From assembly GCA_022822185.1 (NCBI GenBank), contig JAJECE010000050.1, forward strand, positions 63,650 through 127,649: DNA of 64,000 nucleotides. The letters run 5' to 3'. Shown one piece after another: positions 43,702 through 47,540 of the stretch. The notes below the pieces were generated by a model. The model was given only the letters and a program-made list of their open reading frames with translations, searched no databases and was not told where the DNA came from. Both the position numbers and the translations under genes were made by a program. Within the stretch, counting starts at the first letter, position 1. Every line of letters starts with the position of its first letter. This DNA is from Rhodothermales bacterium (lineage in GTDB: Bacteria; Bacteroidota; Rhodothermia; Rhodothermales; Bin80).

Positions 43702-44304
43702 TCAATTTACCTTGTGGAACAGCTTATCCACGATGTGGGTCGGCTCGCCGATATATCTCTGAAAATATATACGTTCCACTCTGCGGTTACAGTCGTGAGC
43801 CAGGATATGTTTGCAGTTCAAATTTGATGCAGAGAAGATGCTTTGCATGCGGCCGGGAAACCGTCCTTTATTACCTCTTGGAGCGTCAATAAACACTACA
43901 TCCCAGAAAGTTTCAAGAACAGCCCGGGGTAAGGATAACTGGAGTTTTTCGGGTTGGTCAATAATCCGCCTCCACTGCCTTCGCTTGGTCGTATAAGTTA
44001 TTTCTTCCACCACAATGGTCGGATTTTGGGATTTTACCTTTTGAATCCAATACGTGCTGTCTTCCAGAAATAGCGTCTGTCCGCCAGAATTAATATCCAT
44101 CCAGTAGGGGGAGTCATAGCCGATACCAAAGACGAGAATATTCCCGGGAGCGTGCAAGTCAATCAGATTGCCGATATATTGATATTCTCCGAGAGAGCAG
44201 TTCCCGGGATTGGAATCTACCAATTTTTGAAAATCAACATCCATGCCTCTGCTCATTACCGTTGTTGTCTGTAAAATGATATTGGGCGCAGTCATTATGG
44301 TCAA
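43702..44304 (-). CDS. DUF579-like (plant glucuronoxylan 4-O-methyltransferase-like) protein
   Basis: 'NILVFGIGYDS..W..INSGGQTLFLED', 'WDVVFIDAPRG....PGRMQSIFSA', 'HDCNRRVE'. Confidence 0.75.
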   Translation of the reverse strand: MTIMTAPNIILQTTTVMSRGMDVDFQKLVDSNPGNCSLGEYQYIGNLIDLHAPGNILVFGIGYDSPYWMDINSGGQTLFLEDSTYWIQKVKSQNPTIVVEEITYTTKRRQWRRIIDQPEKLQLSLPRAVLETFWDVVFIDAPRGNKGRFPGRMQSIFSASNLNCKHILAHDCNRRVERIYFQRYIGEPTHIVDKLFHKVN

Positions 44305-44505
44305 ACTTGCGGGCCCTGTTTACTCCTGCGGGTAGGATGATTTTAATTGACCGCAATGGTCATTAATCGAAACATGAACAGGGATCTTCCATTTCCACAT
44401 GCATACTTCAAGTAGAAAGCGTTTTCCCGAACTTAATCCATGGACATCGTACATCTCGAAAGGGTCGTAGTCGGGGCCCGTTACGCCAGTATTCCTGCAA
44501 AGTTA

Positions 44506-44650
44506 GGGAATTATATCCATGAGTCACAACTCTCATGGTCTTTTTGGTGTTTCATCGCCCGTTGCCTGTCATTGCAGGCTTGCACTCCGCAATGACAGGT
44601 CTTACATAGGCTCCACAACCCGTTCGGTACAATTCGTGCCAGGATGCCAT
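44506..44650 (-). ncRNA. Putative TnpB omegaRNA (reRNA) scaffold overlapping the tnpB 3' end; 5' limit uncertain
   Basis: Minus strand GTGGAG..GTAAGACC, perfect stem CCTGTCATTGC/GCAATGACAGG, CGATGAAAC, terminal hairpin CCATGAG/CTCATGG. Confidence 0.55.
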
Positions 44651-45841
44651 CCCCGACGCCCGGATATTTACGGACGCATTCGTGTCCGCATTCGCCTGGT
44701 ACCCGCACGCCAGACATAGAAACTCGGACTGCTTTTGCCGATTCTTTGCGTTCACATAGGAACACTTGCTACATGTCTGCGATGTATAATGCGGGGGTAC
44801 CTTGATCACCACGCCTCGCTCCCGCAGGAACTGCTCCAGTATCGCCCATCCTGTTCCCAGTATTGAGCGGTTCAGTCCTGCTTTCTGCTTCACGTTCCTG
44901 CCCGGCTTCTCGACCGTTCCTTTCGCGCTTGCGGTCATACCCTTGGTTTTCAGGTCTTCCAGGATTACAAGCGTAGAGATTTCGGTGAGCGATAAGGCAA
45001 TATGACGCAAGTCATTCCTTCGGATGTTCTTGATCTTGCGTTCGTGGCGTGCAATGGTTTTCTTTAGTTTCCTCCAGGAATAACTTCCTTTCTGTTTTTT
45101 CGATAATCGACGTTGAAGCTTCTGAATGCGCTTTTCAATACCCGATGTGTCGGTCAGATAGAAGATCCTTCCCGCACTGTCCGCAACCTGCCCGCAATTG
45201 CGGTCGACCCCAATGCCAATGCCGTCCGCGTATTGTAGGGTCGCGTCCACTTCATAGACGACCGTCATATACCAGTTCCCGTTTTCTTCAAAGATGCGAG
45301 CCGTCTTGGGTACGGGGTTTGTGTAGCGGTTCACTCGATAAAATCGCAGCATCTTCATATGCATTCCCCGCTTTAGCCGAACGTATTCATTCGTTGAAAA
45401 TATCTTCCCCCCTGACACAGCTACGCTGAAGCTTTTTTTCGCCTTGCCCCTTTTCTTGAACCTGGGCAGCCCCCGCTTTTTCTTGAAGAACTGCTTGTAG
45501 GCATCCGCCAGATCCTTCAGTCCAGTGCGAGTCGCGTTTACGGGATACTCTCTTAGCCAAGGTGCGACCGTATCCTTGTGTACTTTATACCACTTGTAGA
45601 AATCAAACTGAGAGGTCTGGGATTGCCCGGTTTCCGCATAATCGTCTTTGGCTTTCGCCAGCGCCGCATTCCAGAGATACCGGTTGACACCCGCCAGTTT
45701 ATTCAGAAACCGGCAGGTCTTTTTGTCGCCTCGCAGACGAAAGCGGATCGTCACATGCTGCCGTGTCCTTGAACCAGCGGGGGACTTTGTCTTACAATCT
45801 TTAATGGGCATAGCATCAAGCGGATGATGTTGTGTAGACAA
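44552..45841 (-). CDS. tnpB: RNA-guided endonuclease TnpB
   Basis: N-terminal OrfB HTH; RuvC D 'GIGVDRN', E 'ILEDL', D 'NADTNA'; Zn ribbon CSKC/CLAC. Confidence 0.95.
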   Translation of the reverse strand: MSTQHHPLDAMPIKDCKTKSPAGSRTRQHVTIRFRLRGDKKTCRFLNKLAGVNRYLWNAALAKAKDDYAETGQSQTSQFDFYKWYKVHKDTVAPWLREYPVNATRTGLKDLADAYKQFFKKKRGLPRFKKRGKAKKSFSVAVSGGKIFSTNEYVRLKRGMHMKMLRFYRVNRYTNPVPKTARIFEENGNWYMTVVYEVDATLQYADGIGIGVDRNCGQVADSAGRIFYLTDTSGIEKRIQKLQRRLSKKQKGSYSWRKLKKTIARHERKIKNIRRNDLRHIALSLTEISTLVILEDLKTKGMTASAKGTVEKPGRNVKQKAGLNRSILGTGWAILEQFLRERGVVIKVPPHYTSQTCSKCSYVNAKNRQKQSEFLCLACGYQANADTNASVNIRASGMASWHELYRTGCGAYVRPVIAECKPAMTGNGR

Positions 45842-45962
45842 TCAGGGAGGCACTATCCTTTCCGATTGTATCCATTTTATCCACCTGAATGGGAAAGGTT
45901 CCCCTCATTGTGACTTATGGATATAATTCCCATTTGTATCGGTAAAGGAACAGAAAGATACT

Positions 45963-47540
45963 TCACGGGAGCGCAGGTTCCACCATCACCACTTCTTCCC
46001 GGCTTACCGCAACCTCGCCAAGTGGAGTCCCACGTACCTTACGAACATATTTCCTGGGGGTTACGATGACCGGAGCAATGCTGCTGGTGCGTGCCTTGCT
46101 GTGCCAGGCCGCAATCGCCGCCGCCTGTTCAATCAGGTGGCGGCTTGGCTGCGCATCACGTTTCGGAAGCCGCAATACCGCGTGGGCACCGCTTACTCCA
46201 CGCGCATGAAGCCACAAATCGTAGGGGCGGGCATGCCGAAGCGTAAGCATCTCACTTTCTTTTGCATTACGCCCGACCCATAATTCATACGGAGGCGCAA
46301 GAGCATAGCGACGGAATGGCCGCCCAGGTGATCCCGGCTTCGTGCGACCCTTCTGAAATGCTTGCAACTCCTTATAGGTCTTCGCCTTTTCCAGTTCCGT
46401 CAGGTCTCTTTTCAATGAGAGCACTTTCTCTTCGACCTGCCTGATGAGTATATCCAGATGGGTCCGGGATGTGCGTGCCTTTCGGGCTTTTAAATAATAG
46501 CGCTCGGCATTCTGCAGCGAGTTTAATGCCGGATCCAGAGACACCGTGACCTTTGTTCCCGGATGAAATACATCCGGCAGTTCCACACGGGAATTGCCGG
46601 CGGACAGCGGTGGCGAAGCCATCAGAATATGCCCGATCCGTTCGTATTCATCTGCGCGTGAGGGGGTTGAGCGTTCCATACGCATTCGCTTTGCCGAGCG
46701 CTCGGCCTTGTCTAGCATCCGCACGAGGTTTTTCCGCAGCGGCTCATACCGGGCCCGGTAGGCTCTCTCGGAGAGTACGCGCTGTGCATAGGTGCGCAGC
46801 GCATCATCCACATCATCATATTTCTGCACCTCCGCGTCCATTCGCCCGGCAAGAGGAATCAGAGAAAGTGCAGGCGGGTTCTGATATACATACAATGCAT
46901 CCCGGGTATTCAATAATTGCAGGTGCAATGCCTGTGCCGCTTCATAGACTGCAGCGGGGTTCGGTGGATCTGTCCCTTCGCAGGGCTTCAGCACTTCTCG
47001 GGCCTGATCTCGATTGAAGCGTACATAGATGCGCTGCAGTGCTTTGATTCGGTTCTCTGCCACCGGATTCCATTTAGCGGTAAACTCGGTCAGACTCTGA
47101 GGCTCCGGTGCCGCGCGTGCCGGCGGGAACTCCACCGGACCACCTTTACGAAATGCTTCCTGTACATGTCCGCTTTCATTTCCTAGAAGCACATTCGCCC
47201 GACTCCCGTACAGATGCGCCTGCAGTTGAAGCCCACCCGTAAACGCCAGAATCAGAATTCGATCCCCCTCGGAAACACGCACGCCTGTAACGGACTGCTG
47301 CCGCAGTGTACGAAAAAGAGATTTTGCATTACGCCGGGGGCGACCAGCATCCTTGCGTCGAAATGCGCCAACGATGGGTGCATGCGTCAGAAACGAGATC
47401 GCTGTGGTTTCTGCGTGGTGCTCCAGTGCAATAATGAGTTCCCCAGGTGCATGGCACCATGCATCCGTGAACGCAGCACCCAGAATGGATTGATCCCAGA
47501 TACGGGCAAGCCTGTGCAGAATATAGTAATTGTTGAGCAT
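45963..47540 (-). CDS. NFACT/Rqc2 (RqcH, FbpA-like) ribosome quality-control protein
   Basis: 'DRIL' NFACT-N, 'NAERYY..ARK', NFACT-R 'VGRNAKE..WLHARGVSGAH'. Confidence 0.85.
   Translation of the reverse strand: MLNNYYILHRLARIWDQSILGAAFTDAWCHAPGELIIALEHHAETTAISFLTHAPIVGAFRRKDAGRPRRNAKSLFRTLRQQSVTGVRVSEGDRILILAFTGGLQLQAHLYGSRANVLLGNESGHVQEAFRKGGPVEFPPARAAPEPQSLTEFTAKWNPVAENRIKALQRIYVRFNRDQAREVLKPCEGTDPPNPAAVYEAAQALHLQLLNTRDALYVYQNPPALSLIPLAGRMDAEVQKYDDVDDALRTYAQRVLSERAYRARYEPLRKNLVRMLDKAERSAKRMRMERSTPSRADEYERIGHILMASPPLSAGNSRVELPDVFHPGTKVTVSLDPALNSLQNAERYYLKARKARTSRTHLDILIRQVEEKVLSLKRDLTELEKAKTYKELQAFQKGRTKPGSPGRPFRRYALAPPYELWVGRNAKESEMLTLRHARPYDLWLHARGVSGAHAVLRLPKRDAQPSRHLIEQAAAIAAWHSKARTSSIAPVIVTPRKYVRKVRGTPLGEVAVSREEVVMVEPALP

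Follow-up and report, generated by a model that had tools for sequence, protein, structure and literature searches.

The 64,000-nt stretch of DNA analyzed here (the window) is G000:C50:63650-127649, part of contig C50 of a sponge-associated Rhodothermales metagenome-assembled genome (MAG), G000, of 3.7 Mb in 132 contigs and 98.8% complete. Our subject is a 1426-bp element of the window in which a lone tnpB gene stands between terminal inverted repeats (TIRs). We shall argue that this solo tnpB, together with its guide-RNA scaffold, is in all probability a non-autonomous cassette of the IS1595 family of insertion sequences (ISs) that is moved in trans by an IS1595 DDE transposase. The element end on the tnpB-3' side is called the right end (RE) and that on the tnpB-5' side the left end (LE). 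The basic features, in window coordinates, are as follows.

44506 to 45931, minus strand (the tnpB strand): the whole non-autonomous element, 1426 bp, with boundaries that recur in copies having other flanks
44506 to 44529, no strand assigned: TIR on the tnpB-3' side (RE), beginning GGGAATTATAT
44552 to 45841, minus strand: tnpB, 429 aa from a TTG codon, with an ATG at residue 11
45908 to 45931, no strand assigned: TIR on the tnpB-5' side (LE), from the inverted-repeat search

An inverted-repeat search of window positions 44200-46200 returned a single inverted pair of at least 12 nt in the 2 kb, the arms 44506-44529 and 45908-45931, which are 24 nt long and complementary at 23 of 24 positions (96%). 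The minus-strand open reading frame (ORF) at 44552-45841 is the sole long ORF between these arms, the ORF list holds no transposase gene inside 44506-45931, and only 46 nt separate the tnpB stop codon from the element tip. An earlier note on this DNA had described one tnpB with all three RuvC acidic residues, bounded by such repeats and lacking a tnpA; each of these points was borne out, and G000 contains no match to the Y1 transposase TnpA.

The encoded protein has the domains of the TnpB family: helix-turn-helix (HTH)/REC, a split RuvC with its D-E-D residues (D213, E295 and D386) and a zinc-finger TNB domain (CxxC...CxxC; C357, C360, C376 and C379). An alignment of six sequences, the window TnpB and five relatives of 37-66% identity, shows no variation in the RuvC triad or in the four cysteines of the zinc finger. 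Three Pfam models (HTH_OrfB_IS605 PF12323, OrfB_IS605 PF01385 and Cas12f1-like_TNB PF07282) all scored above their cut-offs, the NCBIfam guided_TnpB model NF040570 gave 191.5 bits against a cut-off of 100, and the ISDra2 TnpB structures 8h1j and 8exa matched with E values of about 1e-16. The ratio of nonsynonymous to synonymous substitution rates (dN/dS) between tnpB copies was 0.12-0.28 in eight of nine comparisons; the window-L128 value (0.51) was disregarded, the ORFs picked for L128, L036 and L041 being partly wrong or truncated. Judged by its codons, tnpB encodes an intact enzyme, and in multi-copy elements it is under purifying selection.

G000 has 28 places that match the element. Four are near-full copies (on contigs C50, C12, C31 and C45), eight are partial copies cut off by contig ends and two are internally deleted derivatives (C56, 497 bp, and C10, 873 bp), with older fragments besides. 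All 15 TnpB-family matches in G000 belong to the family of the window element, and the G000 copies are 6-11% diverged from one another. The starting base (GGGAATTAT...) is shared by nine copies with unrelated flanks and the final base (...ATAATTCCC) by five. Contigs assembled from other samples (four runs) depart from the window sequence exactly at 44506 and at 45931-45933. Hence, the copy boundaries are the TIRs. Near-identical DNA is present in sponge and marine metagenomes, and in the DNA contigs of other samples the depth of the element is about 5- to 20-fold that of its flanks.

For comparison we used two sister MAGs (G001 and G002), a complete chromosome (G003), a Flavobacteriaceae genome (G004) and a Pseudomonadales MAG (G005). 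One deleted derivative has a full-length counterpart among these relatives. C56:53406-53902 of G000 and L046 of G002 occupy the same chromosomal site and have the same duplication, AAGGCTAT; the G002 element is full-length and that of G000 is 497 bp, having kept 224 nt of the RNA end (RE) and 214 nt of the promoter end (LE). Given the full-length element at that site in G002, C56 is an in-place internal deletion that has yielded a miniature element.

In the scan for target duplications an element had to have GG...CC ends, 10 or more matching positions out of 14 in the repeat and 7 or more out of 8 in the duplication. The scan gave 16 elements with 8-bp duplications, 13 in relatives plus C31, C10 and C56 of G000. 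Four further G000 insertions that are split between contigs (C11+C13, C36+C123, window-left+C22 and C32+window-right) also have an 8-bp duplication, and with C56 and L046 merged as one site there are 19 distinct duplication-verified sites. The window copy takes part in two of the split insertions, called sites A and B.

44498 to 44505, no strand assigned: CAAAGTTA, one copy of the site A 8-bp duplication, the second being G000:C22:503-510, right after the element end
45932 to 45939, no strand assigned: ATTTGTAT, one copy of the site B 8-bp duplication, the second being G000:C32:11220-11227, right before the element end

The flanks of the window element, CAAAGTTA on the left and ATTTGTAT on the right, differ, so C50 as assembled has no duplication. 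Empty sites for both flanks were found in all three relatives searched: site A, where the window-left flank is joined directly to the C22-right flank, and site B, where the C32-left flank is joined directly to the window-right flank, are each present unoccupied in G001, G002 and G003. At each junction in G001 and G002 the two flanks overlap by exactly 8 nt; site B of G002 reads ATTCGTAT. By this comparison of flanks the window copy is a hybrid of two insertions, and for that reason lacks a duplication. Thus, the earlier note was right that the contig carries no target duplication, but this is no property of the element; similarly, empty sites do exist, but not as the junction of the two window flanks that it had written out.

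Contig C50 joins loci (with C22:1-510 and C32:11220-11586) that are about 0.7 Mb apart on the G003 map, with the elements inverted. Either an IS-mediated inversion or a chimeric short-read contig would account for the hybrid, and both fit the contigs; the Logan contigs do not span the element and so do not separate the two. Duplications were lacking in all four elements tabulated from short-read MAGs (L033, L035, L036 and L041, in G001/G002), whereas 9 of 11 elements in the long-read chromosomes G003 and G305 had them intact; L109 and L111 of G003 were without. Because lost duplications are frequent in short-read MAGs and rare in long-read chromosomes, we lean toward assembly chimeras. Users of contig C50 should be aware of its joined loci and, more generally, that short-read MAG contigs running through such repeats can be hybrids.

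These data also bear on whether the copies still move. It could be supposed that they are old insertions, no longer mobile and reshuffled by homologous recombination, the window copy being one product. The 6-11% divergence between copies would fit, as would the many assembled copies that lack a duplication (those of G001/G002 and G003 just named) and a group II intron (described below) that interrupts the LE repeat of two or more copies, C12 and C123 among them. However, both window sites are filled in G000 and empty in the close sisters G001 and G002, where the flanks are 92-98% identical, and hence the insertions there are recent. Moreover, the long-read elements mostly have intact duplications, and the missing ones fall mostly in short-read MAGs, in which contigs can be chimeric across repeats. 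We consider an immobile family very unlikely.

IS1595-family transposase matches were present in seven of seven element-holding genomes. G000 has three such genes, on C29, C111 and C90. That on C29 lies in a 2983-bp element (G000:C29:1304-4286, L032) with perfect 24-nt TIRs and the 8-bp duplication TAAAAAAT, and encodes a 348-aa protein with Zn_ribbon_IS1595 and DDE_Tnp_IS1595 domains that scores 180 bits with NF033547 (cut-off 75). Its TIR is identical to that of the tnpB copy on C31 at 23 of 24 positions. In G001, a 1604-bp IS1595-family IS (L084) has perfect repeats, the duplication TTTGGTTT and a TIR that agrees with the window type at 24 of 25 positions. The terminal bases of the RE repeat of the window, GGGAATTATAT, are those of both C29 and L084, and 8-bp duplications were also found in the transposase elements C29, L097, L084, L082, L086 and L092.

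The agreement extends inward from the tips. In four genomes, five pairs of a TnpB element and a transposase element have cognate inner repeats: C31 with C29 in G000, the window type with L084 in G001, L044 with L078 and L047 with L087 in G003, and L069 with L093 in G005. The G003 genome has two TnpB sub-families, each with its own transposase element of matching inner repeat, and the TnpB of G005 is just 36% identical to that of the window, yet its repeat fits the local IS1595-type element. The window element thus has TIRs in common with elements encoding Zn_ribbon_IS1595 plus DDE_Tnp_IS1595 transposases, and the 8-bp duplication, as is expected of an IS1595 derivative. Derivatives of IS1595 ISs that carry passengers or lack the transposase are termed 'mobile insertion cassettes'. 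The start GGGAATTAT also fits the end pattern that the earlier note gives for the ISNwi1 group in ISfinder, a group of which a literature search yielded no description. Like IS1595 ISs, the family has TIRs beginning GGGAATTAT, AT-rich 8-bp duplications and autonomous relatives with the Zn-ribbon and DDE_Tnp_IS1595 domains and passengers; unlike them, its cargo is an RNA-guided nuclease with the RNA scaffold merged into one end.

The C29 element has a passenger of its own, a 544-aa N6/N4 DNA methylase fused to an Mrr-type restriction-endonuclease domain. Its gene lies directly after that of the transposase, the stop and start codons overlapping. As this gene is unrelated to tnpB, the IS1595 family evidently picks up cargo.

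As the ends of the TnpB element are those of a transposase-bearing IS1595 family, movement by a borrowed enzyme is the most likely arrangement. Several points weigh against it. Mobilization in trans is what we infer from shared ends. The sole G000 cognate, C29, fits the C31 sub-type and shares only the first 12 nt with the sub-type of the window; a search of the G000 assembly for the L084 IS matched the repeat alone; and no TIRs of this type were found at the other two G000 IS1595 transposases, C111 and C90. Only over the terminal 10-13 nt do transposase elements and TnpB elements agree in G004 and G305. Despite these points, the earlier suggestion of a non-autonomous TIR element with IS1595-type ends, moved in trans by an IS1595 transposase, is supported, the movement itself being the inferential part. 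The checks that it had called for also came out in its favor: boundaries of copies with different flanks coincide with the repeats (nine on the left, five on the right), autonomous partners carry the same TIR plus a transposase (C29 at 23/24 to C31, L084 at 24/25 to the window type) and 8-bp duplications stand at 19 distinct sites.

The conventional assignment would be to an ordinary tnpB-only IS200/IS605 element (IS1341 group) that a Y1 TnpA moves as single-stranded DNA, with the repeats as incidental subterminal motifs. The protein fits the OrfB_IS605 and guided_TnpB models and a stem-loop lies near RE; indeed, a lone tnpB, a structured RNA region over its 3' end and multiple copies are what the element has in common with the IS1341 group. 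However, IS200/IS605 elements as characterized in the excerpted text of a 2026 review (PMC13565253) lack both TIRs and duplication, depend on the Y1 TnpA and choose sites 3' of a 4-5-nt motif, whereas the window element has 24-nt TIRs, its family has 8-bp duplications at 19 sites, and empty sites are at hand; it does not belong there by these family traits. The repeats, which the earlier note had feared might be IS605/IS607 subterminal motifs, are instead the ends of IS1595 transposase elements and come with duplications. The IS200_TnpB model NF038281 gave 152 against a cut-off of 425. Finally, a search for Y1 TnpA (PF01797) gave no matches in five of the six host genomes searched (G000, G001, G003, G305 and G004), positive controls being detected, and six matches in G005. 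An IS200/IS605 identity is therefore extremely unlikely. Assignment to IS607, which has a serine TnpA and neither TIRs nor duplication, likewise conflicts with the TIRs and duplications, no search having been aimed at a serine recombinase; the IS607_TnpB model NF038280 gave 86.9 against a cut-off of 350.

The transposase-less state recurs at the other tnpB loci examined. No intact transposase adjoined tnpB at any of 149 loci (69 genomic and 80 metagenomic, with flanks of 1.5-2.5 kb). The search of tnpB neighbors was by tblastn with two IS1595 transposases and gave a match at 1 of 69 genomic loci, a decayed and truncated chimera lacking a duplication, and at none of the 80 metagenomic loci. A candidate element holding both transposase and tnpB between one TIR pair (G003:C1, about 2989928-2991624) was rejected, its genes being decayed, its repeats unlike and a duplication lacking; we take it for a chimera that arose by nesting or deletion.

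Of 401 sampled genomes of the phylum, only three, all of the same genus, contained close relatives (E <= 1e-40), and a species-representative collection plus metagenomes added Rhodothermaceae, Flavobacteriaceae, Pseudomonadales and uncultured sources. TnpBs with the same end type are 35-94% identical and span three phyla (Rhodothermota, Bacteroidota and Pseudomonadota) as well as metagenomes. Of 72 metagenomic relatives with both flanks available, nine had GGGnnTTAT-type repeats plus an 8-bp duplication, and in eight further metagenomic relatives of the same tree groups the repeats came with no clean duplication; repeats of this type were absent from all 48 members of the remaining tree group (31-35% identity). 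In a FastTree phylogeny the repeat-bearing rows fall into two adjacent groups, with unresolved forks between, long branches and a midpoint root, and the tree thus supports a clustering of the TIR label but does not establish that it arose once. Rows L145, L147 and L168, within the TIR-rich groups, have no such repeat. L145, a metagenome contig grouping with the window clade, has instead a perfect 16-nt inverted repeat of another type that does not begin GGG, and may represent another transposon host for TnpB.

The RE side of the element would be expected to encode the guide RNA, and two features were delimited there.

44506 to 44735, minus strand: candidate omega-RNA scaffold, the tnpB 3' end plus 46 nt downstream, of approximate extent (230 nt analyzed)
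44517 to 44538, minus strand: RE stem-loop with a 7-bp stem and an 8-nt loop, its 3' arm inside the TIR, ending 11 nt from the tip

RNAalifold on 14 diverged copies gave 18 pairs, of which 10 showed compensatory changes. Paired cells amounted to 90.2%, versus 77.0% in shuffles (0 of 500 reached the observed value) and 35-47% when the structure was slid, the structure having been derived from the same alignment. When the last 62 nt of 19 copies from seven genomes were folded with ViennaRNA, most had a stem-loop ending 11-17 nt from the tip; the stem sequences differ between sub-families, and the stem-loop is retained in most of the 19 copies. The structured region and stem-loop at the tnpB-3' end look like an omega-RNA. 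No Rfam family matched 44000-46500; the isrK score of 21 bits is below the gathering score of 50, and an isrK identity was dismissed as a chance match. We also discarded an inward-facing terminator (a T-run past the RE stem-loop on the opposite strand), as the lineages of G004 and G005 lack it and as a conserved motif of the tnpB strand coincides with it.

Across the LE-side duplication from the element there is a single base of note.

45940, minus strand: C on the plus strand (G in tnpB orientation), directly 5' of the LE-side duplication and the candidate position of a target-adjacent motif (TAM)

A G stands just 5' of the tnpB-5'-side duplication at 19 of 19 distinct duplication-verified sites. 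At the same position of IS1595 ends without TnpB, G is found in 6 of 21 (Fisher p = 1.4e-6, with sites drawn partly from related elements, kin that are not independent, and most control ends having no verified duplication). Hence, in contrast to transposase-only IS1595 elements, the target sites of TnpB elements have an orientation-specific G. The base following the RE-side duplication varies, with no conservation among the listed sites, and flank lists inspected by eye gave no preference at positions -10 to -12 that would make for a longer TAM. As the invariant G is located where a TAM would lie, it is a candidate TAM.

The mechanism that we propose begins with autonomous elements having the same repeats, which would supply the IS1595-family DDE transposase acting in trans, insertion then leaving 8-bp AT-rich target duplications. 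An omega-RNA would be transcribed through the tnpB 3' end, the RE stem-loop and the TIR into the flank, such that the guide would be the duplicated 8 bp plus the downstream flank. The target of TnpB would be the allele that lacks the element, (...G)(8 bp)(flank); after its cleavage, recombination with the occupied copy would restore or spread the element. The G 5' of the duplication would be the TAM, or its key base, and would filter which insertions persist. This mode of action is likely by analogy with IS605 and Fanzor, and the invariance of the G at 19 of 19 sites where a TAM would lie supports a guide taken from the flank.

Besides the kinship of the sites and the imperfect controls, four further points count against this mechanism. 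First, within the genus the transposase-only ends have G in 6 of 13 cases, which lowers the contrast to p = 0.001, and distant metagenomic elements of the same end type have G in just 4 of 9 (purine in 8 of 9). Second, a one-base TAM is unusually short, the TAMs of IS605 relatives being of 4-5 bases in the excerpted review (PMC13565253). Third, cut-and-paste excision itself leaves a break, an argument set out in the same review (PMC13565253), so the benefit of TnpB to such a transposon is less obvious. Fourth, contigs of an RNA library cannot show a transcript, its strand or its end: their depth was 12-187 over the element and 0-3 over the flanks (11-28 just right of LE), but as the element is 5-20 times deeper in DNA too and the contigs carry no information on strand or ends, these depths speak neither for nor against transcription.

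A rival account would make TnpB mere cargo, the fossil of an IS605-type unit within an IS1595 miniature element. The scaffold would then stop at the stem-loop, the constant tip ATATAATTCCC... would be the guide, and TnpB would either be idle for the element or act on IS1595-type ends generally. Most of the 19 folds place the end of the stem-loop 11-17 nt before the tip, which would allow the scaffold to stop there; all sub-families and the transposase elements have the same tip; and the methylase-Mrr passenger of C29 shows that the IS family picks up cargo. On the other hand, an idle flank would leave the orientation-specific G past the duplication without a ready explanation, tnpB is under purifying selection in multi-copy elements, the C56 deletion derivative retains both the RNA region (224 nt, RE) and the upstream region (214 nt, LE), and the architecture is kept across the lineage down to 35% identity. 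Hence, we regard the cargo account as unlikely, although less so than an IS200/IS605 identity or an immobile family.

How new the trans-mobilized cassette is depends on earlier work. Altae-Tran et al. 2023, PNAS (PMC10691335) report six DDE-transposase-associated TnpB branches (DDE-1 to DDE-6), all having inverted terminal repeats, and solo TnpBs with DDE-element ends that they infer to move in trans. Like these branches, the window element has a prokaryotic TnpB within TIRs and a tnpB 3' end less than 250 bp from the element end (46 nt here); unlike them, in which some members have the transposase beside tnpB, none of our 149 loci has an adjoining intact transposase. Consequently, the view in the earlier note that TIR hosts are a specialty of eukaryotic Fanzors is out of date, and its claim of an undescribed system over-states the novelty: solo TnpBs with DDE ends moving in trans are already in PMC10691335, and what may be new is at most an unnamed partner family. 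The only DDE partner named in the main text of that paper is IS630 (DDE-6); IS1595 is absent from that main text, and the supplements may list it. The 2026 review (PMC13565253) lists ISL2, IS630 and IS1031 as DDE partners in its excerpted text. Literature searches for TnpB with IS1595 and TnpB with ISXO2 returned no report of such a partnership by title and start of abstract. Therefore, TnpB in DDE/TIR elements, including solo copies in trans, was already published in 2023, and the IS1595 partner appears to be unnamed.

The nearest parallel outside bacteria is with Fanzor1 and Fanzor2* of eukaryotic cut-and-paste transposons as described in the excerpted text of Yoon et al. 2023 (PMC10711439): a TnpB-family nuclease in a non-autonomous TIR element with duplications, in which the TIR contributes to the guide-RNA region. 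The differences from Fanzors (PMC10711439) are a bacterial host, an ordinary TnpB size and the canonical D-E-D triad. The 8-bp duplication varies here, which excludes for it the role of a constant component of scaffold or TAM that has been described in Fanzors (PMC10711439).

A stronger version of the trans-mobilized cassette would hold that this TnpB lineage, down to about 35% identity, is strictly transposase-less between IS1595 ends, with a scaffold fused to the transposase-binding repeat and a one-base G TAM acting as filter. We put this forward tentatively, as a possibility that falls well short of the probability we attach to the cassette itself. If true, it would be a natural footprint of RNA-guided homing for a bacterial cut-and-paste DDE transposon and a prokaryotic counterpart of Fanzor1. 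The excerpted review (PMC13565253) names as an open point that RNA-guided nucleases are common in 'scarless' IS605/IS607 elements and rare in prokaryotic cut-and-paste DDE elements. The present family is a natural case for testing what TnpB does for a DDE transposon, because it offers many copies, empty sites in sister genomes, candidate transposases and a concrete and cheap prediction, namely that a G is required beside a target composed of the 8-bp duplication plus flank. A compact nuclease of about 420 aa whose TAM is very relaxed might also be obtained from it. Further work would best be directed at three aspects, namely the partnership with IS1595, the strictly solo habit and the G footprint, and for annotation the family is a warning that tnpB-only genes should not be assigned to IS200/IS605 by default.

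Some minor observations concern individual copies and the surroundings of the element. The group II intron mentioned above is ORF-less, 674 nt long and located at G000:C123:77-750 (L139), inside the LE TIR and antisense to tnpB; Rfam gave 101.8 bits for group-II-D1D4-2 and 66.4 bits for Intron_gpII. Its junction falls exactly between GGATATA and ATTCCC of the LE repeat, at window position 45925 in other samples, and the intron-LE junction was seen in contigs of all four other runs, the RNA library included. The intron is also present at C12:22407-end, partial copies lie at about C29 20054 and C45 6685, and additional group II intron copies are on C69, C107, C1 and C16. By splitting the transposase-binding end the intron may immobilize those copies. 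L110 of G003 (C1:2089528-2093712) has an intact duplication, ATTTTCAT, and at 2609 bp is about 1.2 kb longer than its relatives. Just left of the window element, 109 nt (44281-44389) are skipped in contigs of two runs (X2 and X3); the gap falls at the 3' end of the minus-strand ORF 43702-44304 and is a strain-level insertion or deletion.

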